Source of the DNA: a virus
Strand: one strand, 5' to 3'
DNA length: 64,000 nucleotides
IMG/VR virus record: IMGVR_UViG_3300025684_000011
Shown here: piece after piece, positions 6,131 to 59,338 of the stretch
How the letters are laid out: each line of letters starts with the position of its first letter
How positions within the stretch are numbered: the first letter of the stretch is position 1
Made by a program: the position numbers and the translations under genes
The notes under the pieces: model-generated
What the model saw: the letters and a program-made list of their open reading frames with translations, nothing else
Databases searched by the model: none
What the model was told of the DNA's origin: nothing

Positions 6131-6143
6131 GGTAAATAACAGT

Positions 6144-7055
6144 ATGGCAAATAAAGAAAATATATCATCTGACTTAGTTGGAACTTTAACAGGGCTTAGT
6201 CATAGTGTAGCACTTCGAGATGACGAAGGTAGAGCAACTGTTAATGCAGATGCTTCTATATACCTATACATTAAAGATAAAGGTATTCTTGTATTAGTTA
6301 AGAATGATGTCAAAGAAGTTGAAATTTGGTACGATCCTGCTTCAGCAGATATGGAATTTGTTAAAAACGAAATTAAACCACGGGTAACTACTACAGCTAG
6401 AAGATATCTTTATAGCACAACAACTAGAAGTTATGACGGAGAAATTAGACCTAAAGATTTTGTACACAGAACACAAACAAATGAAAGTAGGAATACAAGT
6501 AAATCCAGTTATCATCCGTTGGGCGAAACAAGAATTATTATTCGACACAATAAAAAAGTAGACGAAGAAAAACGTGGAGCTCGTAGCCGTAATATACAAG
6601 ATGTTTTTATTGAACATAAAGGCGAAAGATTTAGATATCCTCATAAACATTTACTAGGTGCTAGAGTCATGGCATTACATGTTGATCAAGGTGGAAAGCC
6701 TTGGGATCAACTAGGCGAAAAAATTAACGAAATTAGCAGACGTAGAAAAGACATTATGGAATTATTACGTTGGAGTAACAAAATTGAACCGTCATCGCAA
6801 CTTGAAGAAATTAGAAGTCGTGCAAAAAGTGAGGTATTATTGCTTCGTAGAATAATGGATAGTGCCGCTAGAACTGGTAAATTAGATCGTATTGTTGAAC
6901 ATAAGCTAATAATTAGACAGCCAGTATCAGAATCAAATTTAAATATTATACGAAATACAAATGTTAAACTTAAATTAATCCCTGGGTTAGAAATTATTAG
7001 GCCAGAGGGGTTAGTTACTGAAGAACTTAATATACTAACTAATAAATTATTATGA
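6144..7055 (+). CDS. hypothetical protein downstream of terminase
   Basis: ATG 6144 lies 5 nt after TAAATA, preferred over the overlapping 6084 start. Confidence 0.65.
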   Translation: MANKENISSDLVGTLTGLSHSVALRDDEGRATVNADASIYLYIKDKGILVLVKNDVKEVEIWYDPASADMEFVKNEIKPRVTTTARRYLYSTTTRSYDGEIRPKDFVHRTQTNESRNTSKSSYHPLGETRIIIRHNKKVDEEKRGARSRNIQDVFIEHKGERFRYPHKHLLGARVMALHVDQGGKPWDQLGEKINEISRRRKDIMELLRWSNKIEPSSQLEEIRSRAKSEVLLLRRIMDSAARTGKLDRIVEHKLIIRQPVSESNLNIIRNTNVKLKLIPGLEIIRPEGLVTEELNILTNKLL

Positions 7056-7786
7056 TCAATTGGCAGAATGCCTATAATATACCTGGATGGATGCTTTGGA
7101 GAGATTTAATACTTTTAGGTATTATTGCTAAACATACATCAGAAAATTCAAATTTTATAGAAATTGGTAGTTTTGTTGGACGTAGCACTATGGCTATTAA
7201 AGACAATTTACCAGAAAGCACTTGTTTGACAAGTATCGATCCGTTATCAACGCAAATTTGGTCTGCGTATAAAATGGGTCCAGGTTGTTTAGGAGATCAA
7301 AAGGATAAAGAAGATTCTAAGATATACAGCAACTGGAAAGAAATGGTAAAAATAGCACAAGAGCATGACAGCTGGATTCCTAGTTTTAAACATTGTACAA
7401 ATTTTGTTGAAAGTGATAAATGGAAGCTAATAACAAAAAGAAGTGATGAATACGAAATCCCACATGATATGAATATTGATGCAGTTTTTATAGATGGTGA
7501 CCATTCCACCGAACAAGTTGAACGTGATATCTGTAAGTTTATAGATGCAGATCCAAATGATGAGATGTTAATGCTAGGGCATGACTTAAACCTAGATCAC
7601 CATGATGACATATATCCAGCATTAGTTAGAACACAACGACACCCACGTTATAGACATAGAAGGCGCATATTAGTACAGATGCAATTATCTGAAATATGGT
7701 TTCTTTGGCCTACAAAAGGCAAATGGGCAACCCTTTTACCACAAATTATAAACGAAGTCAACCACGAAAGTGAATATTTCTCCTAA
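7052..7786 (+). CDS. class I SAM-dependent methyltransferase (Methyltransf_24-like)
   Basis: IEIGSFVGRST, IDP, FIDGDHS, GHD motifs. Confidence 0.85.
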   Translation: MINWQNAYNIPGWMLWRDLILLGIIAKHTSENSNFIEIGSFVGRSTMAIKDNLPESTCLTSIDPLSTQIWSAYKMGPGCLGDQKDKEDSKIYSNWKEMVKIAQEHDSWIPSFKHCTNFVESDKWKLITKRSDEYEIPHDMNIDAVFIDGDHSTEQVERDICKFIDADPNDEMLMLGHDLNLDHHDDIYPALVRTQRHPRYRHRRRILVQMQLSEIWFLWPTKGKWATLLPQIINEVNHESEYFS

Positions 7787-7814
7787 ATACCGTCTAAAAC
7801 GGATAAATGGACAC

Positions 7815-7843
7815 TTGACTTTAACTAAGAAGATAAGTATAAT
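7815..7843 (+). promoter_or_regulatory. sigma70-type promoter for ssb
   Basis: TTGACT-N17-TATAAT. Confidence 0.8.
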
Positions 7844-7925
7844 TACAATGTAGGCCGGGAAGGTTTACGTTGTTTGGCTCATAAGATATGAACAAATTAA
7901 GGCTCATAATAAGGAGAAAATAATT

Positions 7926-8954
7926 ATGGCAACTTTAGCAGAAATACGAGCTCGTCTAACCGAGCAAGCCGCAAAATCGGGCGGTTCAACTCAATCCGGT
8001 GATAACGGGCTTTTCGCCCATTGGAACATTCCAGAAGGAACATCCGCAGTAATTCGCTTTCTACCAGACGGCGACGAATCCAATACATTCTTTTGGAGAG
8101 AACGTTTAATGATGCGTTTTGAATTTCCAGGCATTAAAGGCCAGGATGAAAATCGCAAATGCATTGTTCAAGTACCTTGTGTAGATATGTGGGGAGAGTC
8201 ATGTCCAATTCATGCTCAATTACGTCCTTGGTTTAATGATCCAAGCATGGAGCAATTGGCTAGGAAATATTGGAAGAAACGTAGTTACGTTTTTCAAGGA
8301 CTTATCGTATCTAGTCCAATGGATGAAGAAAATGTTCCAGATAATCCAGTTCGTAGAATGATTATTAGCCCTCAGATTTTTACAATCATTAAGAGTGCAT
8401 TAATGGACGTTGAGATGGAAGAGATCCCAACTGATTACGAACGTGGTACAGACTTCCGTATCAATAAAACCCAAAAAGGTGGTTATGCTGATTATAGTAC
8501 CTCATCTTGGGCTCGAAAGGAACGTAGTTTAAACGAGGAAGAACTAGAAGCAGTTTCTAAGCATGGACTGTTTAACTTAGATCAGTTTATGCCTAAACGT
8601 CCTGGTAAGGAAGAAGTTGATATTCAACTAGAAATGTTTGAAGCGTCAGTAGACGGGAAATTGTATGATCCAGAACGTTGGGGCAATTACTATCGCCCTA
8701 ATGGAGCAACCTTTGCTACTTCTGCTTCAGCAACTAATCCAGCTCCGGCTACTCCAGTAGCACCTGCACCCGCAACTCCAGTAGCAGAAGCGGCACCAGT
8801 AGCAACTCCGGCAGTAGCACCTGCACCAAGCACTCCAGCAGAAGCACCAGATGGAAATCCATCTCCTGTTGATGCTCCTGCTACAGGTGAAAAGAAACCT
8901 AGTGTGGATGATATTTTAAGTATGATTCGCAACAGGGAAACTACAGGTCAATAG
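7926..8954 (+). CDS. ssb: single-stranded DNA-binding protein (T4 gp32-like)
   Basis: AVIRFLPD, CPIH, YWKKRSY, GTDFRI.K..KGGYADYSTS; Pro/Ala linker; upstream of uvsX. Confidence 0.9.
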   Translation: MATLAEIRARLTEQAAKSGGSTQSGDNGLFAHWNIPEGTSAVIRFLPDGDESNTFFWRERLMMRFEFPGIKGQDENRKCIVQVPCVDMWGESCPIHAQLRPWFNDPSMEQLARKYWKKRSYVFQGLIVSSPMDEENVPDNPVRRMIISPQIFTIIKSALMDVEMEEIPTDYERGTDFRINKTQKGGYADYSTSSWARKERSLNEEELEAVSKHGLFNLDQFMPKRPGKEEVDIQLEMFEASVDGKLYDPERWGNYYRPNGATFATSASATNPAPATPVAPAPATPVAEAAPVATPAVAPAPSTPAEAPDGNPSPVDAPATGEKKPSVDDILSMIRNRETTGQ

Positions 8955-44519: not shown

Positions 44520-45158
44520 ATGCTATCAACATATGCAAATAAACAAAATACTCATCTTGTAATAGATACAACAACTAATGGAATATTAATTGCAGTACAT
44601 AGCAACGTTGTTGCGAATGCAATATGTTTTAAAATATTGAATACAGAATCAATGTCTATTAGGCTAGTAGATTTCAATGAGCAAATAAATTCATTGCTTA
44701 ACCCACAGTTTAATGAGTCTAGTAATTTTATATTAACTAAAGTTGGACATAACTTAACACCTCAATCAACAGCAAATGTTGGACAACTTGTAAAAAGTAC
44801 AGATGGCCATGGTCGTTTTGGTGTAGCTAAAATGTCTGAAGTAACAGATGAGTGGATAGCATTAAGAAAGAAAGCACATAATATCAAAGAAGTTATAGCA
44901 AGTAGCGATCTTCGAGTTCTTAGATCAGCAACACCGAGCAAACAGTTCTTTGGAGACACTATTACCTTTCCTTTTATTAAAAAAGAACTTGATAAATGTA
45001 ATCCACAGGAAGATCAATACACAGATGCTATTCGAGAATGGGCAAGTATAGTAAATGTTCCTGTAAAAAAAGGATTTGAAATGCTATCAGCAGAAAGCAA
45101 TAATATTACTCATTTGGTTAATAATTCAAGAATATTTTGGAGTAAAAAATGTCTTTAA
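44520..45158 (+). CDS. PP-loop partner family protein, copy 1
   Basis: Shares KC.P..D.Y...I.EWA motif with 46179 and 54014. Confidence 0.7.
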   Translation: MLSTYANKQNTHLVIDTTTNGILIAVHSNVVANAICFKILNTESMSIRLVDFNEQINSLLNPQFNESSNFILTKVGHNLTPQSTANVGQLVKSTDGHGRFGVAKMSEVTDEWIALRKKAHNIKEVIASSDLRVLRSATPSKQFFGDTITFPFIKKELDKCNPQEDQYTDAIREWASIVNVPVKKGFEMLSAESNNITHLVNNSRIFWSKKCL

Positions 45159-46186
45159 ATTATGCTTTTAGTACTAAATTAAAACATGGCAGTGAATATG
45201 CTAAGAAAGACATTGCTGTTTTTCGTTCTCTCTATCGTATTGATCCAGATCCATTTTTAGTTGATAGAACTGGCTCTGTAGTCTTTCCTTTCTCAGAAAA
45301 CAATTATTTTCCAATGATACAACCGTTATCTAATGTTATGAGTTGGGAAGAATGTACAAAAGAGAGAGTTGAAGAACTAATATCCTTTGACAAAGAACTT
45401 TATGTTATGTGGAGCGGAGGAATAGATAGTACATTAATGCTTTTATCTTTTATGAAATATAGTAATATGAATAATGTTACAATAGTTTTAAACATGGACT
45501 CAATTAAAGAATATCCTTATTTTTATAAAAGGTTTATAGCTCAATGTAATTATAAATTACTGTCAACTGAACAATTAATGAATAATGCATTGCTAAATGA
45601 CATCAATGGATTAATAGTATCAGCCGAACATGCTGATCAGTTAGTTGGATCTCCTTTGGCTCAGTTACTTGCAACAACATCAGGTAGAACAATGCTTGGT
45701 CTTCCATTTGATGAAGACAATTTCAGCAAATTTTTAACAAACTTAAATGTTCCAGTACATCATATTGATACAATAATGGAACTCTATAACATTAGTATTA
45801 AAAACAGTCCTCGTCCAATTAAGAATATGTGGGATCTCTGTTGGTGGCATGGATTTAACTTTAAATGGCAAACCATCTACATGAAACTGGCTATTAGAAT
45901 AAAAAATCCTTTGAATCTTTTAACTTTCTACTCTTCGGTAAACTTTCAAAATACCAGTATACACCAAGAAGGTAATACACTTGATCTAAAGAAAGTTTTT
46001 AAAGATATAATCGTTAATTATACCGAAGATACTGAATACCTAAGAAAAGAAAAATTTGCATCTTCAACATTATATTATGGACTAACCTCTTCGACAGGAT
46101 TAGACAAAAATTGGAATAAAATTAATGTTGATATGATTGAATACTATAATAAAGATAACACTATAAAGGAAATAATGAATGCTTGA
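45149..46186 (+). CDS. asparagine-synthetase-like PP-loop ATPase, no glutaminase domain
   Basis: DRTG, MWSGGIDST, SAEHADQLVG, WW..FNFKWQ. Confidence 0.8.
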   Translation: MSLNYAFSTKLKHGSEYAKKDIAVFRSLYRIDPDPFLVDRTGSVVFPFSENNYFPMIQPLSNVMSWEECTKERVEELISFDKELYVMWSGGIDSTLMLLSFMKYSNMNNVTIVLNMDSIKEYPYFYKRFIAQCNYKLLSTEQLMNNALLNDINGLIVSAEHADQLVGSPLAQLLATTSGRTMLGLPFDEDNFSKFLTNLNVPVHHIDTIMELYNISIKNSPRPIKNMWDLCWWHGFNFKWQTIYMKLAIRIKNPLNLLTFYSSVNFQNTSIHQEGNTLDLKKVFKDIIVNYTEDTEYLRKEKFASSTLYYGLTSSTGLDKNWNKINVDMIEYYNKDNTIKEIMNA

Positions 46187-46898
46187 TACTTTTAGCAATA
46201 GAAAAAATGTTACAATGATGCTTATAGACCAAGAAGATCTCAGTATATTAACTGTTACATCAAGTGTCTCGGTACTTAATGCATTGTCAGAAGGTTTTGA
46301 TAACTCTGTACCTGTACTTGGAAGAATAACAAATCCTGATGCGTTAAAAGCACTAAGAACTTATAATCAATCAGCTTCTCAAGCTCTGTTAGTAAATGTC
46401 GGACTTGATGATCTAACTCAAGAAATTGAAACCAAAGCAAATTGGGACACGATTGGACTAACACCAATCAGCTTTGGCTTAAAGCCAATGAACGAAAAAG
46501 CAGAAGGGTTTGTATTAAAAAGAAAGATTGCAAATAGAAGAAACAACGTACTGTCTCAGATTGAATCTAAATTAGAACGTTATGCCAGTCGAGTTATTAA
46601 TTCTTCTCTTGATGATATTTTTATTCCCTATATGTCGGACGAACTTAGTAAATGTAAACCAGATGAAGACCAATATACCAATCCTGTAATTGAATGGGCA
46701 ATAGCATCAGGTTTAGATGTAAAACAAGCATATCATGAGTTAAGCATGGTAACAAGTTCTGCTAATTTAATTACTATGCGTCTTCATGCTCATTGGAGGT
46801 TCTTTGTAAACCAAGTTAATAAGCTCGACTTTCAAGTTGACGGAATACTAGAAAAAGTTATTGCTGATGCTGAACTAAAACTTAGATCTGGGCTATAA
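46179..46898 (+). CDS. PP-loop partner family protein, copy 2
   Basis: ELSKCKPDEDQYTNPVIEWAIASGLDVKQAYHEL. Confidence 0.7.
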   Translation: MLDTFSNRKNVTMMLIDQEDLSILTVTSSVSVLNALSEGFDNSVPVLGRITNPDALKALRTYNQSASQALLVNVGLDDLTQEIETKANWDTIGLTPISFGLKPMNEKAEGFVLKRKIANRRNNVLSQIESKLERYASRVINSSLDDIFIPYMSDELSKCKPDEDQYTNPVIEWAIASGLDVKQAYHELSMVTSSANLITMRLHAHWRFFVNQVNKLDFQVDGILEKVIADAELKLRSGL

Positions 46899-47001: not shown

Positions 47002-47298
47002 ATGTCAAAAACTACAACGTCAATCAGATCATTCGATCTAGAAACGAAGCAAGGCAAGCTCTTTCACGCACTAGTGCTAGAGAAGCAAGCTCTTACTAAA
47101 TCAGCAATTAAGAAGCGATTTGGTATTGCAAATCCTACCGCGACTGTATCGAACATTCGCCAACGTGGTTATGCTATCTATGCAAACCAACGTAAAGCCG
47201 GTAATGGCGTACATGTAACTGAGTATTCACACGGTGCTCCGTCACGTCGTATGGTTGCTTTGGCCTATAAGGCTCAGGGAATGGGTATTACTGTTTAA
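47002..47298 (+). CDS. small basic winged-HTH-like DNA-binding protein
   Basis: LT...I.KRFGIANPTATVS.IR..GY; own promoter and terminator. Confidence 0.7.
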   Translation: MSKTTTSIRSFDLETKQGKLFHALVLEKQALTKSAIKKRFGIANPTATVSNIRQRGYAIYANQRKAGNGVHVTEYSHGAPSRRMVALAYKAQGMGITV

Positions 47299-47321
47299 TC
47301 AGTAGTTTCTAAAACTGACTA

Positions 47322-47349
47322 AAAATAGGGGGAGAAATCCCCCTATTTT
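47322..47349 (+). terminator. rho-independent terminator
   Basis: AAAATAGGGGGA-GAAA-TCCCCCTATTTT. Confidence 0.88.
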
Positions 47350-47397
47350 CTTGACATAAATATCAGGCATTGAATGCAAGAAAGAGAGAGTATACAC

Positions 47398-48258
47398 ATG
47401 TCAAAACGTATCCTAATTATGGGATTACCAGGATCTGGAAAAACAACTTTAGCTGAGAAGTTAAAAACTTATATAGAGGCAGAAGCCGGTATAAGTTCAG
47501 CACCATTAGATAAACAAATTAGAGTAATTGAATCTCCTAAACTAGACGAATATAAATGTACAGTAGATTGGTTCAACGCAGACGAAATCCGTAAGAAGTT
47601 TGACGACTGGGATTTTAGTCATACTGGACGCATTAGACAAAGTATTCGTATGTTTGATTTGTCTCAAGAATCAAATGCTGATTTTGTTATTTGCGACTTT
47701 GTTGCACCGTTAGTAGAAATGAGAAATAATTTTAAAGCAGATTGGACAATTTGGATTGATACAATTAAAGAAGGTAGATATGAAGATACCAATAAAGCAT
47801 TTATTGAACCTGAGGTATATGACTTCCGTGTACCAGAACAAGATTGTGAAAAATGGGCTAGATATATTTGCGACAGAATTGTAAAAGATGAAAGAAGACC
47901 TATGTTTGACTGGAGGAAAGAAACAGTACAGATGCTAGGCCGTTGGCAACCATGGCATGATGGACATCGTGCATTATTTGAAAGACTAATTCAACGCACA
48001 GGACAGGTTGTAATACAAATTAGAGATGTACAAGGATGGGAAGGTTCTAATCCTTTTGAAATTGATCAAGTTAAACGTTTTATTAAAGCAGACTTAGATC
48101 CATTGTACCAAGGACAATATGAAATTCAGATTGTTCCTAATATTGTACATATTGGCTGGGGTAGAGGTGTAGGTTATACGTCAGGAGAAGAAACCTTTGA
48201 CGAATCAGTAACAGAAATTTCTGCAACTAATATTAGAAAAGGAATGGGACTAAAGTAG
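47398..48258 (+). CDS. APS-kinase-like P-loop kinase fused to HxGH nucleotidyltransferase
   Basis: GLPGSGKTT, NADEIR, DFS..GR; GRWQPWHDGH; ISATNIR. Confidence 0.8.
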   Translation: MSKRILIMGLPGSGKTTLAEKLKTYIEAEAGISSAPLDKQIRVIESPKLDEYKCTVDWFNADEIRKKFDDWDFSHTGRIRQSIRMFDLSQESNADFVICDFVAPLVEMRNNFKADWTIWIDTIKEGRYEDTNKAFIEPEVYDFRVPEQDCEKWARYICDRIVKDERRPMFDWRKETVQMLGRWQPWHDGHRALFERLIQRTGQVVIQIRDVQGWEGSNPFEIDQVKRFIKADLDPLYQGQYEIQIVPNIVHIGWGRGVGYTSGEETFDESVTEISATNIRKGMGLK

Positions 48259-49878: not shown

Positions 49879-50781
49879 ATGAAGATATTACCCTTAGCCA
49901 CGATCGCAGTATTCGTGGGCATCTTTACGGCGAATGCTGGTGAAAAACTAGCACTTCCGTCTACGGAAGGTGTAGACATTACAACATATGGTGAAGTCCG
50001 AGCATATGTTGAATCATCAACTACAAATGATGTTGATACAGCAATTAAAACATCAGACAGTAAAGTAGGACTAAAATTTAAGACTAAAGAACCAGTATAT
50101 GTCTTTGGAGAAATGTCAGCTAATGTTGATCTATCCTCAGACGGAGCAGACGATGTAACAACTCGGTTTGGTTATATTGGCGTAGGTACCAATGCATTGG
50201 GAGAAATTTCACTTGGACGTACAATGAGCATTATGGATTCATTTGTTGATAAAGCAGATGTGTTTATGGGTGCAGGAAATCAAGGAGTTCAGAAGACTCC
50301 TTTTACTATGAATAACAGTTTGAAGTATACTGGTAGTTTTAGCGGAGTCGATGTTGGCTTTCAAACACAAATGACTGATGATGCACAAAACCATGACTTG
50401 GATTTATATCAAATTGGTTTAGGCTACAAAGGCATTGGTGTTGCATATGCAAGAGATGAAATTAATTCATCTGACTACTATGGCTTGGGTGTTTCTCAAA
50501 AGTTTGGAAAAATTGGAGCATATGCTAGTGTGTCGGTATTAGATGATGATACACAAGCAAATGATGCAGTTGGATATGAACTTGCTGGTTCATATGATTT
50601 AAACGAAAAACTAACACTACAAGGCGGTTGGCAAGATACTGACGTTCAATCAGATGACGGTAACTTGACAATTGAATCACAGTATAAGATTGCAACTCAA
50701 TCAGTATTTTTTACTAATATTGATTATGACTTAACAACAGAAGATGCAACTCTTCGAACAGGTCTTAGCTTTACATTCTAA
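49879..50781 (+). CDS. Gram-negative outer-membrane porin
   Basis: Signal peptide; YGEVR, SKVGLK, R.GYIG....GEISLGR, NSLKY; C-terminal Phe (GLSFTF). Confidence 0.88.
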   Translation: MKILPLATIAVFVGIFTANAGEKLALPSTEGVDITTYGEVRAYVESSTTNDVDTAIKTSDSKVGLKFKTKEPVYVFGEMSANVDLSSDGADDVTTRFGYIGVGTNALGEISLGRTMSIMDSFVDKADVFMGAGNQGVQKTPFTMNNSLKYTGSFSGVDVGFQTQMTDDAQNHDLDLYQIGLGYKGIGVAYARDEINSSDYYGLGVSQKFGKIGAYASVSVLDDDTQANDAVGYELAGSYDLNEKLTLQGGWQDTDVQSDDGNLTIESQYKIATQSVFFTNIDYDLTTEDATLRTGLSFTF

Positions 50782-50795
50782 ACTAGTTTTGAATA

Positions 50796-50844
50796 TTTAC
50801 CCTCCTCTAGTAATGATATATAATATTATATAGAGGAGGGTAAA
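50796..50844 (+). promoter_or_regulatory. 14-bp hairpin sequestering the RBS of the next gene
   Basis: TTTACCCTCCTCTA ... TAGAGGAGGGTAAA; TTG start 2 nt after the stem. Confidence 0.7.
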
Positions 50845-50846
50845 GT

Positions 50847-51569
50847 TTGCCACTAATAGAGCAATATCCTAATTATAAATTCTTAGAAACCGTGTTTAGA
50901 CTTGGACACTTAGATAAACTCAAAAAAGCATTTTATGATAGTAAGCCTGTATGGAACCAAAGAGCAACAAAAACATTCTTTGCTGATTGCGGCTGGTATA
51001 AGTATCCTTATTGTTGTTTCGTTCCTGGTTATGAAGAATTAAATGCTCCAAACGTTATTGGTTTACTGCAATCTGAGATATACAATGCAACAGTTAACAT
51101 TGTTAAAGAACTGTGGGTAGCACTATATAAAGAAACTGACGAAGAATGGATGCCTTTCGGAGCAGAACTTAACTTAGTATATCCTGGCAGGAAAATTCAA
51201 CCTCACACAGATAATCATTTCTATAGCAATTATGCAACTAGATGTCATGTTGTATTAGAAACTAATAGTAATGTAGAATTTACATTTGGAAACAACGAAT
51301 CACCAACATTTAATGTAGGACATTCTTTTATTTTCAACAATAAAAGAAGGCACGAAATATGCAATTTTGGAAGCACAAACAGAGTTCATTTAGTAGTAGA
51401 TTTTTTACCCAAGAACATATTTCCTTATACAGAAAGAACTCTTGCTCCGTTTGGTACTGACAACTCGTGTCATATCATTAATACTATACGTTCAAAAGAT
51501 CATCCTTTACATAATAAATATGTAGACTATGTTGACGATACACCTATACCTAAAAGAAAAACTATATGA
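50847..51569 (+). CDS. Asp/Asn beta-hydroxylase-like 2OG-Fe(II) dioxygenase
   Basis: PG..I.PHTD, RCHVVL.TN, FNN...H...N....R.HLVVD. Confidence 0.85.
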   Translation: MPLIEQYPNYKFLETVFRLGHLDKLKKAFYDSKPVWNQRATKTFFADCGWYKYPYCCFVPGYEELNAPNVIGLLQSEIYNATVNIVKELWVALYKETDEEWMPFGAELNLVYPGRKIQPHTDNHFYSNYATRCHVVLETNSNVEFTFGNNESPTFNVGHSFIFNNKRRHEICNFGSTNRVHLVVDFLPKNIFPYTERTLAPFGTDNSCHIINTIRSKDHPLHNKYVDYVDDTPIPKRKTI

Positions 51570-52225
51570 TTTCAGACGATGTTAATCAACCTGTTCAGGC
51601 ACATCCTGAATATTTTATCCCTCTAAATTTAACACTACCTCAAGTAGATATCGAAGCACTTAAAGGCGGCATTATTGCTGATTTAAGCGTCAAGCACAAG
51701 GATAGCGATAGATTATGGTTTAATACTGCTATCGCATCTGGTAATCCATTAGAAGAAACGCAGAGAGTAGCAAATGATTTCTTAGAACAATATAATCTTG
51801 AGGCAAGTACTATGGGAATATTTGTTGTTAATGCTAATACATACGATTGGAACATACATTGTGATTCACAACGTTTAGAAACTCGGCTAAATTTTTATGA
51901 ATTAACTACTGCTCCGGGCTTAGTTCGCTGGTTTCCGGATACAAACGACGGATATGAAGAGATACATAAAAACATAGAAGGTAATGAATTTGTTGACTAT
52001 GTATGGCCATGGGTTATACAGTTTAAGCAACAACATAGGGATTGGAGCAAAGTACCACCTGCTATTTGGTCTACATCTACTGGTTGTAGTAGTGCGTTAG
52101 TTAGGACTAATTTACCACATCATGTAGTACAAGGTGATGGAATTAGGATAACAGTTACCTGTAAGGTTGTAGACAAAGAAACAAAGAGTACAGTTGACAC
52201 ATGGAGCAGATTACAACAATGTTAA
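51566..52225 (+). CDS. putative 2OG-Fe(II)/cupin-fold dioxygenase
   Basis: IHCD...RLNF...LVRTNLPHHV....RITVT. Confidence 0.65.
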   Translation: MISDDVNQPVQAHPEYFIPLNLTLPQVDIEALKGGIIADLSVKHKDSDRLWFNTAIASGNPLEETQRVANDFLEQYNLEASTMGIFVVNANTYDWNIHCDSQRLETRLNFYELTTAPGLVRWFPDTNDGYEEIHKNIEGNEFVDYVWPWVIQFKQQHRDWSKVPPAIWSTSTGCSSALVRTNLPHHVVQGDGIRITVTCKVVDKETKSTVDTWSRLQQC

Positions 52226-52653
52226 AAAGAGTTACAAACTTAACTTATGGCATGGCCGAAGAGTTAAAGAAAGATCCTGTTAGGCCGAATATTACGCCTT
52301 CAAGGAGAATTGGAAAAAACAAAGATATTTTCTACGAGTTATCTGATGAAGGAAATATTGATGCAGTAATTTGTGTTACCTATACAAATGATGTACCTAC
52401 TGATGAATCAAATTTATTTGATATGCCAGGTAAAGACGTTGCTATTTTTTATAGTGTCTGGAGTAACAAGGCCGGTGCTGGACGCAAGATAATCTTTGAT
52501 ACAGTCGATGTAATAACAAATGAAAATAAAAATATACAACGTTTTGTAACACTAAGCCCAAACACTAAAATAGCAGAAAGATTTCATCTAAGAAACGGAG
52601 CAATAGTATTCCGTACCAATGACAATACTGTAAATTATGAGTATTTAAAGTAA
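52201..52653 (+). CDS. hypothetical protein (possible GNAT-like fold)
   Basis: DPVRP, FYSVWS...GAGR, TLSP.T..A..FHL.NGA. Confidence 0.6.
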   Translation: MEQITTMLKRVTNLTYGMAEELKKDPVRPNITPSRRIGKNKDIFYELSDEGNIDAVICVTYTNDVPTDESNLFDMPGKDVAIFYSVWSNKAGAGRKIIFDTVDVITNENKNIQRFVTLSPNTKIAERFHLRNGAIVFRTNDNTVNYEYLK

Positions 52654-53360: not shown

Positions 53361-54014
53361 ATGAAAATTTTAACAACGGACGGCATGCTAGATAAAAGAA
53401 ATACAATGTACCCTTCTTATGCCGAAAAGATTACAAATGCATTTAAAACTTCTGAGGCCTATAGTTCAACTTATGGATATGTACTAAACGGAGAAGTTGA
53501 ATTACCAAATAAATGGATTGCAAGAGAGAAGGAATATTTTTCTTTTGCAAGTCATGAATCAACAGATTTTCAAGTAACAGGGACGGCAGTATTTTTTACT
53601 AGACTAGGACATATGCATCAAAACAACTTAGGAGGTCCTATTGAAGACAGTGGACGACTTTGTTATATAGATGGTTGTAGTGATAGTTTATTAATATATC
53701 CAAGTCGTGCAGGAGATCCAAGTGTTAACCTTTTAGCTTTCCCTGCAGGCATTAACCAAACATTTCATATTCACCCTAGTGTAAGATTAGGATTTGTTGC
53801 TGAAGGATCAGGTAATGCAGAAATGATAACAGGTGAAGTGTATCCGTTAGAAGCAGGAAGTATCTTTTGTATTGAAGAAAGAGAAAATCATAGATTTCAA
53901 ACAATAAACGATACAATGAAAATTATTGCATACCATCCAGATGGAGATTGGGGACCAACTGATCAAAATCATACAATGTTAAATCGTACATATATACTCG
54001 ACGGTGGCCAATAA
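53361..54014 (+). CDS. cupin-domain protein
   Basis: YIDGCSD, QTFHIHPSVR.G, E.H.F.T, YHPDGDWGPTD. Confidence 0.8.
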   Translation: MKILTTDGMLDKRNTMYPSYAEKITNAFKTSEAYSSTYGYVLNGEVELPNKWIAREKEYFSFASHESTDFQVTGTAVFFTRLGHMHQNNLGGPIEDSGRLCYIDGCSDSLLIYPSRAGDPSVNLLAFPAGINQTFHIHPSVRLGFVAEGSGNAEMITGEVYPLEAGSIFCIEERENHRFQTINDTMKIIAYHPDGDWGPTDQNHTMLNRTYILDGGQ

Positions 54015-54718
54015 TGTTCACAACAGAACCAACACTACAATATCTAATTGTAGATAGTAGAACTAATGTTATTCTAGTTGGAACAACAAATGCAGATGTA
54101 GCATCTGCATTGATGCTAAGAAGATCCTACTATAGATCAGAAGTAGACTACATGAACAATTCAAGTAAGAACAAAGGTCTTTTTGCTACTGGTTTAGATA
54201 GAGAGTTTGATAAGATGATAGTCACCTATAGAATGAATTATCATGTTAAGTGGGGCGGTACTCCAAACGAATCAGGTCGGCACGAAATAGAGACTGTTAG
54301 GGATTGGACTAATCTTGATAAAAACGCTGTTACACAAGCTAGACAAGAAGCAATGACAGCTGAATTATTCTATGCTAGTGCATGGCAGATTCTTATGCAT
54401 TCTTTAAGATGGACACCTCCAGAAAATGACATGGTGATTAGATTTTATCCTGAACTGTTAGATGCAGTTAATAAATGTATCCCACTCCACGATTATTATG
54501 TTGATGATATTATTGAATATGCTTCTATTACTGGAATAACACCTAAGCAAGCCTATAATGAAATTAACAACCAACTAATACCTATACGCAAACAACGTAT
54601 TCGTGCGTATGCCCTTTGGCAAAAATATACCCAAAAGATGCTAATGGTAGACACTAAACAAGAATTTCAGAATATACTTTCAGAAATTAGAAACAACGTA
54701 TTTTTAGGAACAGAGTAG
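54014..54718 (+). CDS. PP-loop partner family protein, copy 3
   Basis: VNKCIPLHDYYVDDIIEYASITGITPKQAYNEI. Confidence 0.7.
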   Translation: MFTTEPTLQYLIVDSRTNVILVGTTNADVASALMLRRSYYRSEVDYMNNSSKNKGLFATGLDREFDKMIVTYRMNYHVKWGGTPNESGRHEIETVRDWTNLDKNAVTQARQEAMTAELFYASAWQILMHSLRWTPPENDMVIRFYPELLDAVNKCIPLHDYYVDDIIEYASITGITPKQAYNEINNQLIPIRKQRIRAYALWQKYTQKMLMVDTKQEFQNILSEIRNNVFLGTE

Positions 54719-54719
54719 A

Positions 54720-55037
54720 ATGTATAGACCATTACCAGACGGATTAACAATAAGAGAATCAAATGTACAAGGATTAGGATTATTTGCAACCAAAGATTTT
54801 GATGCAGATGTAGTATTAGGAATTGTGCATGTTATGAATAAAAACTTCCCTCATGGAAGTATTAGAACGGCATTAGGTGCTTTTTATAATCATTCAGATG
54901 ACCCTAATTGCAAAAACCATGAAGGCTTCTGGCATCAGATTCCTGTCCGTTATTTAACTACAACTAAACCTATCAAATCAGGTGATGAATTAACTGCAAA
55001 GTACACTTTATATAATAATTTTGAGGATGTAGCATAA
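54720..55037 (+). CDS. minimal SET-domain methyltransferase
   Basis: GLGLFATKD, NHSDDPNC, I..GDELT..Y. Confidence 0.9.
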   Translation: MYRPLPDGLTIRESNVQGLGLFATKDFDADVVLGIVHVMNKNFPHGSIRTALGAFYNHSDDPNCKNHEGFWHQIPVRYLTTTKPIKSGDELTAKYTLYNNFEDVA

Positions 55038-56128
55038 TGGGCGAATTATTATTATCTACAGTTTCTAGTCAAGTACATACCGCAACAAACAAAACACAAG
55101 ACCAACTGGATTTTTATTCCATTTATAATGTTATTGCTCCATTAGTTAATTTATGTGACAGAACTGGTCACGTTATAACTCCTTATAATTATAAAGTTAC
55201 ATTACCAATCCCAGCTAATGGCAAAGTAGGAACATTTGAAGAAATTGCAATCGCTAGGGCAAAAGAGTTATTAGATTTAAGTAAGGCAACTAACAAGCCT
55301 TGTTTAGTTTTGTGGAGTGGAGGCATTGATAGTACAACAGTATTAACAGCATTAATTATAGCCGCTGATGGAGATTATAGTAATATTAAAGTTTGTATGA
55401 ATGCTCAATCAATAAGAGAAAATCCTAAATTTTATTATAATTATGTTAGAGGTAAAATGGAAATTGCTCCTAGTGAAATAATGTTTGATTATATTAATAA
55501 AGATCATATTATTTGTAGCGGAGAGGGTTGTGATCAGTTATTTGGAACTGACATATATCTAGCAATTCAGGGTTGGGATAATAATGCAAGTATGTTCCAA
55601 CCATATACTTTTGAAAATGTTGGTGCATTTTTTATGCATAAAGGAATGCCTAGCAGACAAGCAAAAATTTGGTTTGATATAATGGATAACCAAATTAAAG
55701 CAAAACAACCTTGTGAAATTACAGATTTTAAAGATTTCTTTTGGTGGTACAACTTCTGTTATAAATGGCAAAATGTATATTATAGACTTTTTAATATGGG
55801 AAAAAGAATGTCTATAACACTTGACCAAGATTTCTTTGATAACAACTACCATAACTTTTTTATGAATGACGACTTTCAAAGATGGAGTATAAACAATCCT
55901 GATAAGAAAATTACAAAGGATTGGGCTTCTTATAAATTTACAGCCAAAGAGTTTATATATGCGTTTGACAAGGATGAGGAATACTTTAATAATAAAGTTA
56001 AGATTCCAAGTCTGATAAACGTGTTTCGAACTATAGAGCATGTTGGCGGACTAAATTCTGATTTTGAATTTTTACCTAAGAACTTTGATATTGAACCTTA
56101 TATTAACAAAACAAACAGTTTTACTTAG
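55037..56128 (+). CDS. asparagine-synthetase-like PP-loop ATPase, no glutaminase domain
   Basis: DRTG, LWSGGIDST, SGEGCDQLFG, WW.NFCYKWQ. Confidence 0.85.
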   Translation: MGELLLSTVSSQVHTATNKTQDQLDFYSIYNVIAPLVNLCDRTGHVITPYNYKVTLPIPANGKVGTFEEIAIARAKELLDLSKATNKPCLVLWSGGIDSTTVLTALIIAADGDYSNIKVCMNAQSIRENPKFYYNYVRGKMEIAPSEIMFDYINKDHIICSGEGCDQLFGTDIYLAIQGWDNNASMFQPYTFENVGAFFMHKGMPSRQAKIWFDIMDNQIKAKQPCEITDFKDFFWWYNFCYKWQNVYYRLFNMGKRMSITLDQDFFDNNYHNFFMNDDFQRWSINNPDKKITKDWASYKFTAKEFIYAFDKDEEYFNNKVKIPSLINVFRTIEHVGGLNSDFEFLPKNFDIEPYINKTNSFT

Positions 56129-56164: not shown

Positions 56165-57106
56165 ATGGAATATGGATTAGACAACAAACAAGAATTTTAT
56201 GTTGATTATACATCTTGTACTAGACCAGTAGGTAACATGCGAGATGAAATGGAAATTGCATGTACTAACTTAGCAGAAGATGCACAAAGTAGAAATACTT
56301 CTGTACTCATCAGCCTTAGTAGTGGATTAGATAGTCAGGTATTGTTGCACACATTTCATTCTTTAGGACTGCCATTTAGTACAGCCTTCTGCCATTGGCC
56401 AGGTTATAATGATAACGAACGTAGTAATATAGATATACTAGATAAGAAGTATGATAATAAAACTACTATTATTGAAATTAATCCAGATGATCATAAAGAA
56501 GAAGTTGAAAAACTAGCAATCAGTACTGGAATCCCAGCAGAACATCATTTAATGAAAATGTTTTTAAATCAACTACCAAATGAATTAGATATATTACAAG
56601 GTATTGAAAGTTTTGATTTTATATTCCGTAATAAAAAAACATATTGTATGGAAAGTTGGACTGCAATAGAAATAGCAAGTCAAAGAGCATTACAAGAAGT
56701 TAACCGTGAAGGTAAGATAGTATCAATTGACAGACGTTCTAAGTTTAACGAGTTTACACTAGCATTGTTAAGTGATTCAATAGTTGAAGGCTATTGTAAT
56801 TCTATTAGGTATATTGCTGGCAATGGTTTAATTGAGAAAAAATCAGGAGAGTCACCTCCTTTAATATTTTCATGGGAATATTATGTCAAACCTTTGTTAT
56901 ATGGTTTATATTGGAAAGGTGAATTAGAGTTATTTCCAAAAGATGTTAGTGCAAATAATATTGCCTGGATAATGAATCCAAGCGACAGCAGGTTGAGACA
57001 TAACTATAAAAATAAATGCGCCTATGTTGAGAGGAACGAATTAATAAACCATCTAAAAGATTTTGGGTCTAATAAGACTCGTAGATGGCATCAGTATAAA
57101 GGATAA
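56165..57106 (+). CDS. divergent PP-loop ATPase
   Basis: ISLSSGLDSQV, QGIE. Confidence 0.65.
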   Translation: MEYGLDNKQEFYVDYTSCTRPVGNMRDEMEIACTNLAEDAQSRNTSVLISLSSGLDSQVLLHTFHSLGLPFSTAFCHWPGYNDNERSNIDILDKKYDNKTTIIEINPDDHKEEVEKLAISTGIPAEHHLMKMFLNQLPNELDILQGIESFDFIFRNKKTYCMESWTAIEIASQRALQEVNREGKIVSIDRRSKFNEFTLALLSDSIVEGYCNSIRYIAGNGLIEKKSGESPPLIFSWEYYVKPLLYGLYWKGELELFPKDVSANNIAWIMNPSDSRLRHNYKNKCAYVERNELINHLKDFGSNKTRRWHQYKG

Positions 57107-57110
57107 AAAT

Positions 57111-58421
57111 ATGCCGGCACCACTTATAGATCCAAACGGATCTTTACCAGAAAAGAATATAATTGTAAATCCTTATATTAATAAGAAGTTAGGATATTAT
57201 ATTGTAGACGGTTTTGAGTTTGATTCAAAAATTAGAGCAGGATTACATTCTGTTAAAGTGAATAAGCCAGTACAATGGATATTTAACAACAAAGAATTTA
57301 GATCTCATGACTGGAGTGTTGAACCTAGTGAAACTTTAGATCAGTTATATGATGCAAGAGCTTTTGACCTAAGAGTAAAATATGATTACCTTATTTTAAG
57401 TTTTAGTGGAGGAAGCGATTCTTGGAATATTTATAAAGCATTTCAACGACAAGGCTTACACATTGACGAGGTAATTGTTAATACAATGTCTAAGGCAAGT
57501 AAAGGATTAGTAACAGATACCAGTACTAAAGCATTTAATGCTCCTGAAAGCGAACATGTAAGAAATACAATACCTAGGCTTAAAGAAATACAAAAAGAAA
57601 TGCCTATGACAAAGATTACTGTTACTGATCAAAGTGACTATCTGTTTGAAAGCCTAGAGGCGGCCGGAGATGCTAGTTGGGTATTAGAGAAACGTGAGGG
57701 ATTGAATCCTGCAGGTATTACTAGATTCAATTATTTGCATTTTATGGAAGTAAGAAAGAGATTTGATAAAGATAAAAAGATAGGGCTGATAGTTGGTATT
57801 GAAAAGCCTAGAACACTTGTTCACCAAGGACGTTTCTTTGTTAGATTTGCAGACAGAAGTACCAATATGATTACAGTAGCAGAACATTTAAAAGACTATC
57901 CTAATTCAACAGTTGAATTCTTTTACTGGTCTCCAGATTGTGTTCCTTTGCTTATTAAACAAGCTCATGTTGTTAAGAAATACCTTGAGGCTAATCCTTC
58001 TATGCAAGTTCATTTCAATAGTGAAAATTCTACAGGAAAAGTATATAGATTATTGCACGAGCCTTTACTTAGAAACTTATTATACAGTACCTGGGATCAA
58101 CGTTGGTTCCAAGCAGAGAAAGCAGTATTAGATTGGGATAGTGAATTTGATCAATGGTTTAGAGTTGGTTATCAAGATACTAAAGCATATCAAATTTGGA
58201 TGGAAGGTCTAAAGTATGTAGCAGACAACTTAAAGCCCTTTCTACGTTATGTAGAAGATCCTGATAATGATATATGGAATACTAGTGTAATGAATTCTTT
58301 TATTGATAGGGGTGATGAATTAGTTGGACAACGTCCGGATGGTTTGGCTCCGGTCCTTCATAACTACGAAGTTGGTAGAATGAAAGTAACCGGGCCAGGT
58401 GTTAATACGTTTATGCGTTAG
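57111..58421 (+). CDS. divergent PP-loop ATPase
   Basis: LSFSGGSDSWNI, HIDEV, GIEKP, EFFYWSP. Confidence 0.7.
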   Translation: MPAPLIDPNGSLPEKNIIVNPYINKKLGYYIVDGFEFDSKIRAGLHSVKVNKPVQWIFNNKEFRSHDWSVEPSETLDQLYDARAFDLRVKYDYLILSFSGGSDSWNIYKAFQRQGLHIDEVIVNTMSKASKGLVTDTSTKAFNAPESEHVRNTIPRLKEIQKEMPMTKITVTDQSDYLFESLEAAGDASWVLEKREGLNPAGITRFNYLHFMEVRKRFDKDKKIGLIVGIEKPRTLVHQGRFFVRFADRSTNMITVAEHLKDYPNSTVEFFYWSPDCVPLLIKQAHVVKKYLEANPSMQVHFNSENSTGKVYRLLHEPLLRNLLYSTWDQRWFQAEKAVLDWDSEFDQWFRVGYQDTKAYQIWMEGLKYVADNLKPFLRYVEDPDNDIWNTSVMNSFIDRGDELVGQRPDGLAPVLHNYEVGRMKVTGPGVNTFMR

Positions 58422-59338
58422 TTCTTCTGTAATGGAATATTATTGTCTATTAAAAATGCTTTTAATTTAACATTATTACGGAAAGCAAAAAGTTTTGTTT
58501 CTAAGTCTGTTCCTGCAATAGGAAACAATCCAATATTTTTAAGTCCTTGAACAAACTCTTTTCTCTTAAAAACATTGCTAATATCTTCTTTAATACTATC
58601 TAAGTTAGGCGACTTCCTTGATGCAATTAATCCAATAGGACTAACAAACGGAAACTCTTCCTTATACACATCTTGCCATGTAGGAATGTCTAATCCTAGA
58701 TCTTGACTTGACATAATGCTTGTAATATTAGCATCTAAATGATTTTTCACAGTTGGATAGTTTGCAAACATGCAATCAATATTACCTGCTAGTAAATCAC
58801 TCAAAGCAGTAGTTCCTCCTTTGGCATAAGGAATAACCTTACTTTCAATTTTTAACTTTTTAATTAGTACTTCTGTAGCCAAATGTTCACTACTTCCGTA
58901 ACCCGCGGCACCAAATAAAATTCTTCCCTTATCAAAGTTTTCTAAGTCTGCAACTGTTGACATTTTTCTATCATCATTACAAACTAATACATTAGGCATT
59001 GTAGCAACAACACCAACTAGTTCAAAGTCTTTAATAGGATCATATGGTAAATCTTTAAACCTAATTTCGTTAGTAACATAGATTTGTGCCATTGTGGCTG
59101 TAATAATAGCATTATTAGTTGTTAACATATGTTTGATTGCAATTTTACCTGCGGCACCTGGCCGGTTTACAACATTATATTTGTTATTAGAATCAACAAC
59201 ATTTCTTTCAATTAATCTTGTAGTTTGATCACTTGGGCCTCCAGGTCCGTGATGTACTGTAAATTCAATGTCCGCGGCGGAGGCAGTTGAAACAGCAAAT
59301 GCCATAATTGCGGCACTAATTAAAATATTTTTAATCAT
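58418..59338 (-). CDS. tctC: tripartite tricarboxylate transporter substrate-binding protein (TctC/Bug)
   Basis: Signal peptide; PGGPSD..R, VVNRPGAAG.I, YDP.KDF, G.GS..HL, IPY.KGG..A..DLLAG. Confidence 0.88.
   Translation of the reverse strand: MIKNILISAAIMAFAVSTASAADIEFTVHHGPGGPSDQTTRLIERNVVDSNNKYNVVNRPGAAGKIAIKHMLTTNNAIITATMAQIYVTNEIRFKDLPYDPIKDFELVGVVATMPNVLVCNDDRKMSTVADLENFDKGRILFGAAGYGSSEHLATEVLIKKLKIESKVIPYAKGGTTALSDLLAGNIDCMFANYPTVKNHLDANITSIMSSQDLGLDIPTWQDVYKEEFPFVSPIGLIASRKSPNLDSIKEDISNVFKRKEFVQGLKNIGLFPIAGTDLETKLFAFRNNVKLKAFLIDNNIPLQKN

Follow-up and report, generated by a model that had tools for sequence, protein, structure and literature searches.

A hitherto undescribed two-gene unit is present twice in a marine T4-like phage. 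It is composed of an ATP-using enzyme with a predicted AsnB fold (the ligase) and its own helper protein, which from its sequence and model is non-enzymatic (the partner). Such units are frequent among uncultured phages, in which ligase and partner are inherited as pairs. A literature search returned no description of the ligase or partner family.

The units lie in a 64,000-nucleotide stretch of phage DNA, hereafter the window (Table 1). The coordinates of all five ORFs, the SET gene separating the ORFs at 54014 and 55037, and the overlapping stops and starts are as given in the original prediction. The end of partner A overlaps the start of ligase 1 by 10 nt (45149 versus 45158), and ligase 1 and partner B also overlap (start at 46179, stop at 46186). 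A GC hairpin probably marks the end of the first operon. In the second operon, the SET gene is a lineage-specific insertion that separates partner C from ligase 2, two genes whose counterparts directly adjoin one another in the sister locus L051. A T4-type late promoter (TATAAATA) was absent from the vicinity of both units, and a scan for sigma-70-like promoters performed no better than on shuffled sequence. Megablast of the region against GenBank phages gave a single 77-nt match, which was unrelated. The window has two more PP-loop ORFs, at 56165 and 57063; because neither matched the ligase HMM even at E 10, they were not counted as ligases.

Table 1. Features of the two ligase-partner loci in the window.
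Feature	Coordinates	Strand	Length	Description
Partner A	44520..45158	+	212 aa	Cognate partner upstream of ligase 1; family HMM E 1e-46
Ligase 1	45149..46186	+	345 aa	Predicted stand-alone AsnB-type PP-loop adenylating enzyme without glutaminase domain
Partner B	46179..46898	+	239 aa	Orphan partner; family HMM E 7.5e-54
GC hairpin	47321..47350			Strong, 13-pair stem; T run on both strands (terminator scan)
Cupin	53361..54014	+	217 aa	Pfam Cupin_2 E 2.5e-8; first gene of second operon
Partner C	54014..54718	+	234 aa	Partner of ligase 2; family HMM E 2.2e-41
SET-domain protein, minimal	54720..55037	+	105 aa	Pfam SET E 2.3e-10
Ligase 2	55037..56128	+	363 aa	Paralogue of ligase 1; family HMM E 2.2e-114

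The predicted paralogy of the ORFs at 45149 and 55037 was borne out by a full-length BLASTP alignment (26% identity, E 4e-26) and by shared motifs. Both ligases contain WSGGIDST, S(A/G)E..DQL.G, and WW..F..KWQ, which in ligase 1 take the forms WSGGIDST, SAEHADQLVG, and WWHGFNFKWQ. The PP-loop begins at residue 88. S89, G90, G91, I92, D93, and S94 were invariant across 47 enzyme sequences, as was D163 of the second motif. The ligase keeps what is clearly a catalytic ATP site. The second motif may correspond to the AsnB SGEGxDE-type motif, which provides the Mg/AMP-binding acid; this tentative mapping, with S/TGE..DQ.FG at the matching position, follows the general AsnB motif and not an alignment. 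The region itself reached AsnB only as a weak HMM stretch (1ct9 325-392, E 1.8). Family-level searches were similarly sparse. No Pfam family matched the ligases at E ≤0.01, the only NCBIfam match was LarE (16.6 bits against a cut-off of 150), profile searches of PDB sequences reached AsnB and ASNS only at E 0.4-1.8, and phmmer with ligase 2 against PDB sequences found nothing.

Class assignment was instead drawn from the AF2 model of ligase 1 (pLDDT 92). Its 12 best structural neighbors all belonged to the AsnB class (AsnB, ASNS, beta-lactam synthetase, carbapenam synthetase, and TsnB9), aligning by VIA-align at Z 10.2-12.3 over 188-253 residues with an rmsd of 3.2-6.2. The best scores were to 7ylz (12.3, 253 residues), 8sue (11.6), 1mbz (11.1), 1ct9 (10.9), and 1q19 (10.3), and the top Foldseek match was TsnB9 (E 3.9e-4). 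Like these enzymes, the ligase is predicted to combine a PP-loop Rossmann core with a helical subdomain. The next structural class, other PP-loop families, scored Z ≤8.5 (GMP synthetase 8.2, TilS 7.4, TtuA 7.2). The model thus supports the original proposal of a stand-alone AsnB-type synthetase domain. The proposed lack of a glutaminase domain also held, as only about 60 residues precede the Rossmann core and the model aligns solely to the synthetase half of AsnB-class enzymes (490-576 aa), from about residue 133-186 onward.

The ligase nevertheless differs from the AsnB class in several respects. Identity to its members is 8-13%, below all Pfam and NCBIfam thresholds, and the DRTG and WW..F..KWQ motifs are specific to the ligase family. 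At 345 aa against about 500-575 aa, it lacks any N-terminal Ntn-type domain; to our knowledge, all characterized AsnB-class enzymes keep their N-terminal domain. The ligase is also accompanied by a separate partner protein, which none of AsnB, beta-lactam synthetase, carbapenam synthetase CarA, or the hydroxyamidotransferase TsnB9 is known to have. Among 53 sequence relatives (up to 604 aa), no fusion of partner and ligase was found. Apparent N-terminal extensions of high-GC bacterial homologues were set aside, as they look like ORF-calling artefacts.

Membership of the QueC family or another characterized family, which would have spoken against a new enzyme, was not seen. The ligases had no Pfam QueC match and no PADLOC match to Qat or Cap, a QueC-like PHROG matched 23 PP-loop residues only (E 8e-4), and PDB QueC matched the ligase profile at E 1-2.5. 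As PADLOC found no match for the ligase at all, assignment to a known defense system is not supported. Weak matches to TilS and QueC-like profiles, confined to the PP-loop, would fit a ligase that modified RNA or DNA in the manner of TilS, MnmA, and TtcA (tRNA) or QueC (queuosine), with the partner as a nucleic-acid-binding subunit. Compatible with such a role, the window's ligase region adjoins a KTI12/PSTK-like kinase, and the one weak tblastn match of the ligase in GenBank phages, from Pseudomonas phage Cygsa01, bears an automatic MnmA label and adjoins a tRNA gene. We consider a nucleic acid substrate extremely improbable. The TilS and QueC-like matches span only 25-45 residues around the PP-loop, and the AsnB class ranks clearly above TilS, TtuA, and GMP synthetase structurally. 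Neither ligase sequence shows a visible Zn-binding Cys cluster, and no Fe-S cysteine motif or known RNA-binding domain was found in the ligase.

The association between ligase and partner recurred well beyond the window, as the original prediction required of a true pair. A partner-family HMM matched 57 ORFs in 80 IMG/VR loci, most of them directly upstream of the ligase gene; the usual order is partner then ligase, and the partner usually overlaps the ligase start by 4 nt. In a tree of 156 non-redundant ligases, all 44 partner-coupled leaves fell within one 49-leaf clade and none outside it. Ligase 2 belongs to the same partner-coupled clade as ligase 1, in a subclade of its own with support 1.0. 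Four look-ups centered on the partner gave a ligase-sized gene abutting downstream in two (one confirmed, ligase HMM E 3.6e-86) and an overlapping downstream gene cut by the contig end in the other two. Three single partners used as queries in IMG/VR recovered no related loci. Partner subtypes matched ligase subtypes between genomes. For example, the ORF of locus L007 that is most closely related to partner C (1789-2421) immediately precedes the ligase most closely related to ligase 2, and the partner A orthologue of L004 occupies the same position as in the window. Nearest neighbors agreed in 25 of 41 pairs, and partner and ligase distances were correlated (Mantel r 0.60; 2000 permutations reached 0.17 at most); linkage alone can produce such co-diversification. 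Together, these data support a tight and specific coupling of the ligase to the partner family in many genomes.

Comparison with relatives also clarified the first locus, where the ligase had been described as flanked by two partners. The adjacency is real, but the two are not partners of one ligase. Relatives (L004-L006, L016-L018) have the order partner-ligase-partner-ligase, and in L004 partner B' precedes a 352-aa ligase. The apparent sandwich is therefore two tandem pairs, of which the second has lost its ligase; tblastn detected no remnant of it in the window. The window's order is also kept in L179 with a dN/dS of 0.21, so purifying selection has maintained partner B even though its own ligase is gone. 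This persistence is explained equally well by an adaptor that also serves ligase 1 and by a free-standing function.

That the ORFs at 44520, 46179, and 54014 form a single second family was confirmed both by pairwise BLASTP (A-B 6e-15, B-C 4.5e-8, A-C 1.3e-4) and by their matches to a 140-sequence family HMM (1e-41 to 7.5e-54); no other ORF in the window matched this HMM even at E 10. The family comprises 246 clusters (50% identity) at E ≤1e-3 and 151 at E ≤1e-10, with lengths of approximately 210-245 aa. The AF2 model of partner B (pLDDT 90) is a compact, confident two-domain fold. Structure searches returned no named fold relative, PDB Foldseek and VIA-wide gave only generic helical matches (Z ≤7.7), and the N-terminal domain had no detected likeness to an Ntn-type domain. 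With no invariant column among the 140 sequences and a modeled fold without named relatives, we conclude that the partner is, as far as sequence and prediction indicate, non-catalytic.

Our preferred reading, held tentatively and at somewhat less than even confidence, is that each unit encodes a two-subunit ATP-dependent ligase, with a catalytic AsnB-type subunit and a non-catalytic, substrate-selecting partner. By analogy with the AsnB class, the catalytic subunit would bind ATP at the PP-loop and adenylate a carboxylate, and an amine would then attack the acyl-adenylate to give an amide or a ring. Because the ligase lacks a glutaminase domain, the nitrogen must come from a second substrate or from free ammonia. 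The partner would be synthesized in step with the ligase through translational coupling and probably forms a stable complex with it, replacing the missing N-terminal domain and thereby choosing the substrate or presenting it. The QatB-QatC and CdnD-Cap9 systems, described below, provide a precedent for PP-loop enzymes that have their own protein partner. Counting against this reading are the lack of partner-ligase fusions among the 53 relatives and the lack of resemblance between the partner's N-terminal domain and the Ntn-type domain that it would replace. At the second locus, the cupin and the SET methyltransferase may act within the same operon, presumably on the same substrate. A comparable arrangement among AsnB-type enzymes is that of the lasso cyclase (C protein), which likewise is without glutaminase activity, activates a side-chain carboxylate, and has a separate recognition protein (B protein/RRE). 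Unlike the ligase, the cyclase retains its N-terminal domain (about 600 aa) and requires a short precursor peptide and a protease. None of the genes seen here carried a lasso protease or RRE annotation. The partner differs from the RRE as well, being a two-domain protein of 210-245 aa whose strand-helix order, judged by eye in the predicted model, is unlike the PqqD-type winged helix.

The ligase superfamily as a whole covers at least 526 stretches in IMG/VR, to which species-representative genomes add at least 117. Clades other than the partner-coupled one have upstream proteins of 127, 164, and 200 aa. These were treated as separate families, since hhalign of upstream families (127, 160, and 197 aa, among others) against the partner profile gave probabilities ≤3.4% for all but one cluster (96.6%). 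Because different clades use different, unrelated upstream proteins, the partner would behave as an exchangeable specificity module; the ligase that carries a fused fiber-chaperone-like domain at the partner's position also favors such exchange. The cupin family of the ORF at 53361 occurred within 2.5 kb of 66 of the 156 non-redundant ligases and shared their strand in nearly every case, making it a frequent third member of the module. In Bacteroidota, cupin, small protein, and ligase form a self-contained cassette that lies in unremarkable parts of the chromosome, unaccompanied by further pathway genes.

A self-contained cassette would also fit a reading in which the upstream protein is the substrate. 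The ligase would then either adenylate a small carboxylate and join it to the partner, or activate one of the partner's own carboxylates, giving an internal isopeptide or lactam. Further modifications would come from the cupin and SET protein, and the modified partner would be the functional product. Precedent exists in the QatB-QatC and CdnD-Cap9 anti-phage defense systems, in which QueC-like PP-loop enzymes have a dedicated protein partner: Cap9 attaches a deazaguanine to CdnD, and in the Qat system the N-terminus of QatB is inserted into QatC (PMC13376578). There too, a PP-loop adenylating enzyme lies beside a partner of no known family, and the unrelated folds of CdnD and QatB mirror the unrelated upstream proteins of the ligase clades. 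By analogy, these systems offer a conceptual precedent for a partner as second substrate. A protein-modifying SET domain inside the operon would suit such a product, as would an Asp at partner position 16/17, the best-conserved polar residue of the family (81% in A4, at least 90% in A5). The parallel is incomplete, in that the Qat and Cap enzymes are a QueC-like subfamily with a zinc site and reside in defense islands rather than phage genomes, and QatB and CdnD have a long N-terminal tail bearing a conserved Gly2, a feature absent from the partner family. Partner N-termini vary, with 0 to about 25 residues ahead of the first strand and often no free tail, and partner A types lack the family's last helix and C-terminus. 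No acceptor residue is invariant, and the compact, confidently predicted fold is unlike typical precursor proteins. We therefore hold a substrate role for the partner to be possible but on balance doubtful.

The original prediction had further compared partner C-termini to tail-fiber-assembly domains. This likeness was not supported: none of 140 partners matched a fiber-assembly Pfam family, and there was no significant fold match. Two faint, non-significant likenesses to DUF4376-type proteins (BFVD E 0.43; ESM feature score 0.89, a lead only) point that way for the partner. Gene neighborhoods give a mixed picture for the original idea that the pair modifies virion proteins, specifically tail fibers, by amidating or cross-linking them as they assemble. 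One clade, found in prophages of Burkholderiales and Xanthomonas and in related IMG/VR contigs, is placed right behind the fiber gene, in the order Baseplate_J, fiber N-terminal protein, 197-aa protein, ligase, 167-aa protein, and cupin. In locus L045, the ligase is fused, at the partner's position, to a fiber-chaperone-like domain matching proteins annotated as tail fiber, tail assembly chaperone, or tail fiber assembly protein (E 6e-6 to 6e-4). This ligase is located 2.6 kb beyond a 914-aa gene with a fiber-like segment and a free chaperone-like ORF. Peptidase_S74 and Mtd_N genes lie near the L012 and L007 ligases, respectively. Against this, cargo genes are commonly inserted after fiber genes, the chaperone motif occurred in 1 of 166 loci, and Aquimarina and Neolewinella carry the cassette in non-prophage chromosomal settings. 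Within the window, both units lie outside the structural genes, in an accessory island that also encodes TRAP and TTT binding proteins, a porin, hydroxylases, and a kinase. Fiber modification thus appears very unlikely.

The contents of that island bear on another explanation, in which the ligases are steps of a small-molecule pathway (e.g. toward an amide-linked or cyclized metabolite or a lipid head group) that draws on imported carboxylates and oxygenase tailoring, with the partner as scaffold or without a direct role. DctP and TctC proteins bind carboxylates, and the window's TctC protein carries a signal peptide. Recurrent neighbors at 52 non-redundant phage loci were FA_desaturase (8), cupin (8), DctP (7), TctC (6), P-loop kinase (6), Asp/Arg hydroxylase (4), and 2OG oxygenase (4), counts that are not independent because many loci come from related marine T4-like phages. 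Locus L007 additionally encodes radical SAM/SPASM and Rieske proteins, and the known AsnB relatives without a glutaminase (beta-lactam synthetase, carbapenam synthetase, and TsnB9), which are also the nearest structures, have small-molecule substrates. A pathway role is nonetheless unlikely in our estimation, as neither a transporter nor a further biosynthetic gene is present in the minimal bacterial cassette, and tight, clade-specific coupling to a non-enzymatic protein would be unusual for a plain metabolic step.

Returning to the two-subunit ligase, a wider form of it can be entertained at low confidence: a modular protein-ligase system in which a stand-alone AsnB-type enzyme is aimed at client proteins by interchangeable adaptors. 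Its products would be side-chain amides or isopeptide links on proteins of the host or the virion, and a cupin hydroxylase would often take part. The adaptors in such a system would comprise the partner family, the unrelated small proteins of other clades, and, in one phage, the fused fiber-chaperone-like domain.

The ligase superfamily is large yet nameless, lying outside every curated family. The characterized glutaminase-less AsnB relatives of which we are aware all produce amides or rings of an unusual kind (beta-lactams, carbapenams, lasso peptides, and hydroxamates), and a new AsnB branch with its own subunit is therefore likely to perform new chemistry. As the ligase-partner pair is small, predicted to be soluble, and easy to express, the question is directly testable. 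Should the partner prove to be an adaptor or substrate, the recently discovered principle of a PP-loop enzyme working on a partner protein would extend from QueC-like defense systems to a phage-encoded AsnB-type enzyme. A modular protein-ligase, if real, would constitute a new class of enzymatic post-translational modification in phages and some bacteria.

We confirmed the positions of all open reading frames (ORFs) named in the original prediction. The two enzymes encoded in the window, ligase 1 and ligase 2, aligned end to end (26% identity, E 4e-26), in keeping with their proposed paralogy, and the motifs WSGGIDST, S(A/G)E..DQL.G, and WW..F..KWQ are common to both. No family in Pfam, NCBIfam, or PADLOC matched the enzyme. 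A profile of 47 enzyme sequences reached PDB sequences via the PP-loop only (LarE, E 0.007; AsnB/ASNS, E 0.4-1.8). The AlphaFold2 model from this 47-sequence alignment was confident (pLDDT 92.4, pTM 0.90), with the AsnB-like hydroxyamidotransferase TsnB9 as the top Foldseek match (E 3.9e-4, 317 columns). The first 12 ranks of a VIA-align search were all AsnB-class (Z 10.2-12.3, 188-253 residues), including TsnB9, human ASNS, beta-lactam synthetase, E. coli AsnB, and carbapenam synthetase. FAD synthase, ATP sulfurylase, GMP synthetase, LarE, NAD synthetase, TilS, and TtuA ranked lower (Z 8.5 or below).

Compared with AsnB-class enzymes, the ligase model covers the synthetase half only, so the N-terminal glutaminase-type domain, whose absence had been predicted, is missing and not just inactive. 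All 47 aligned sequences have SGGIDS, E121, D163, K281, Y297, K300, and K302, and the three signature motifs are retained in all enzyme clades inspected. From these sequences, the family members appear to be working enzymes. AsnB-class enzymes adenylate a carboxylate, which is then attacked by an amine. By analogy, the same chemistry would be expected of the ligases; we consider it highly improbable that they modify nucleic acids. At one related locus (L052), two complete ligase domains (HMM stretches at residues 30-314 and 399-690) follow one another within a single ORF, a natural ligase-ligase fusion.

Features of the window and of two related loci (L045, L052)
Feature	Coordinates	Strand	Description
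Partner A	44520-45158
Ligase 1	45149-46186		345 aa
Partner B	46179-46898
98-aa ORF	47002-47298	+	weak winged-helix match (HTH_39, E 0.0014)
Terminator	47321-47350		strong bidirectional hairpin, 3' of the 98-aa ORF
Kinase	47374-48258	+	294 aa; N-terminal P-loop kinase (KTI12/APS-kinase-like); C-terminal stretch NMN-adenylyltransferase-like (NCBIfam E 7e-5)
Accessory run	49879-52653	+	Porin_4 Gram-negative porin; Asp/Arg beta-hydroxylase-family protein; 219-aa protein of no known kind; protein with malonyl-CoA-decarboxylase C-terminal-like stretch
Cupin-partner-ligase	53361-56128
Partner C	54014-54718
SET protein	54720-55037	+	minimal SET domain, 105 aa; between partner C and ligase 2
Ligase 2	55037-56128		363 aa
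PP-loop proteins	56165-57106, 57063-58421	+	two further stand-alone proteins (SSGLDS, SGGSDS); same operon, 3' of ligase 2
TctC/Bug-type binding protein	58418-59338	-	clear signal peptide (…STASA/ADIEF); convergent with PP-loop operon
L045 ligase	5395-6999	+	534 aa; 3' of the same 914-aa gene as the free ORF
L045 free ORF	2758-3234	+	158 aa; tail-fibre-chaperone-like; directly 3' of 914-aa gene with fibre-like segment
L052 tandem ligase	5857-7986	+	709 aa

The partners A, B, and C do form one family, as proposed (pairwise E 6e-15 to 1.3e-4; partner HMM E 1e-41 to 7.5e-54). Apart from the three partners and the two ligases, no ORF of the window matched the enzyme or partner HMM, even at E 10. 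An exhaustive profile search returned 246 representative partner clusters, 151 of them at E 1e-10 or below and nearly all of 200-245 aa. Pfam searches of 140 members matched no meaningful family. Partner alignments lack invariant columns; the best-conserved positions are small or hydrophobic residues and an Asp near the first strand (81% in alignment A4, at least 90% in A5), and several Arg, Glu, and Lys positions are conserved at 65-85%. Before the first strand lie between none and about 25 residues. The structure model was confident (pLDDT 90.3), with an N-terminal alpha/beta domain (11-103) and a C-terminal helical bundle (111-237). Foldseek found no PDB match below E 0.17, VIA-align against 48,161 chains gave generic helical matches only (Z 7.7 or less), and ESM Atlas and BFVD returned uncharacterised viral proteins only. 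We interpret the partner as non-catalytic, with a fold that has no recognisable relative.

The enzyme family is large, with relatives encoded in at least 526 stretches from IMG/VR and at least 117 from species-representative genomes. The best 80 of the IMG/VR loci contain 116 ORFs that match the enzyme HMM and 57 that match the partner HMM. The latter mostly lie immediately 5' of an enzyme gene, in the same orientation, with a 4-nt overlap commonest. In a FastTree phylogeny of 156 enzymes (non-redundant at 90%), every leaf with an adjacent upstream partner (44 of 44) fell in one 49-leaf clade (support 0.79), bearing out the predicted linkage in other genomes. The five clade leaves without an adjacent partner include ligase 2, where the SET gene alone intervenes. 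When four diverse partners were looked up, two directly preceded a gene of 365-367 aa, which in L176 matches the enzyme HMM (E 3.6e-86); the other two overlap a downstream gene truncated by the contig end. In locus L007, a partner-C relative precedes a ligase-2 relative and a partner-B relative precedes a ligase-1-type enzyme; partner and enzyme subtypes match across genomes. Partner and enzyme distances were correlated over 41 non-redundant pairs (Mantel r 0.60; maximum 0.17 in 2000 permutations), and nearest neighbours agreed in 25. This shows that partner and enzyme are inherited and diversify as a unit, a relation that does not prove physical contact.

The enzyme had been described as flanked by two partners, a reading that its relatives do not support. 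Relatives (L004-L006, L016-L018; 58% enzyme identity) have the order partner A', ligase, partner B', second ligase, which amounts to two partner-ligase pairs; the window lacks the second ligase and any remnant of it. Locus L179 shares the window's three-gene order (identity 74% for the ligase, 66% for partner B). We obtained dN/dS values of 0.13 (ligase), 0.21 (partner B), and 0.45 (partner A), at dS close to saturation. Given its dN/dS and the order retained in L179, selection maintains partner B even though no ligase is paired with it, which means that it has either come to use ligase 1 or functions apart from any ligase.

Other enzyme clades are preceded by different small proteins of 127, about 164 (with a hydrophobic N-terminus), about 200, 224, and 227 aa. 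By hhalign (probability 3.4% or less), these are not detectably homologous to the partner or to one another, except for one cluster (96.6%) that is a distant partner cluster. Of the 156 enzymes, 66 have a member of one cupin family within 2.5 kb, almost always in the same orientation; the share is 14/15 and 13/13 in the two Bacteroidota clades and 3/3 in the prophage clade. The ligase-2 subclade has the order cupin, partner, ligase, as does the window; in the sister locus L051 the SET gene is missing from between the latter two. Across 52 non-redundant phage loci, FA_desaturase, cupin, DctP, TctC, P-loop kinase, Asp/Arg hydroxylase, and 2OG oxygenase recur as neighbours. That the ligases are steps of a small-molecule pathway seems rather unlikely.

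The window is part of a ~252 kb marine-metagenome contig (ENA ERZ27246217) that encodes a large terminase, a UvsX-like recombinase, DnaB-type and other helicases, and ribonucleotide reductase, and therefore represents a large T4-like phage. G+C is 32-40% across the whole window. The accessory island around the units holds DctQ/M/P genes, a porin, an Asp/Arg hydroxylase, cupin, the SET protein, a kinase, and a TctC protein. The kinase gene (with the module) and the accessory run are syntenic in L004 and L179. The 98-aa ORF is 94% identical to that of L179 (dN/dS 0.04), conservation far above its neighbours'. The two further PP-loop ORFs matched nothing in Pfam or NCBIfam and, up to E 10, did not match the ligase HMM either, and so belong to other, unnamed PP-loop families.

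Modification of virion fibres by the window's ligase units is doubtful. In its favour, Undibacterium, Comamonas, Xanthomonas, and Ralstonia prophages, as well as related viral contigs, have the gene order GP46, Baseplate_J, a tail-fibre-N-terminus-like protein, a 197-aa protein, ligase, a 167-aa protein, cupin, and Peptidase_S74 and Mtd_N genes lie close to the L012 and L007 ligases, respectively. Residues 33-162 of the L045 ligase match proteins annotated as tail fibre, tail assembly chaperone, or tail fibre assembly protein (E 6e-6 to 6e-4) and share an SDW...W..YR motif with the free ORF of that locus; the ligase N-terminus is fused to a paralogous copy of this ORF's chaperone-like domain. 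However, the motif occurs in only 1 of 166 loci, and the window's two units lie away from structural genes. The Aquimarina and Neolewinella cassettes neighbour sulfate permease, thiolase, pseudouridine synthase, PQQ dehydrogenase, and BipA genes, so these cassettes are not in prophages. Nor does the partner bear significant likeness to fibre chaperones (Pfam on 140 members; VIA-align and BFVD fold searches); its C-termini, originally thought to recall tail-fibre-assembly domains, had no significant match in either type of search.

A literature search found no description of the family. Precedent from CdnD-Cap9 and QatB-QatC (PMC13376578) suggests that the partner could be the protein substrate of the ligase, by analogy a possible but minority reading. 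Most likely, if still tentatively, the pair would constitute a two-subunit ligase in which the partner serves as an exchangeable, non-catalytic specificity subunit.
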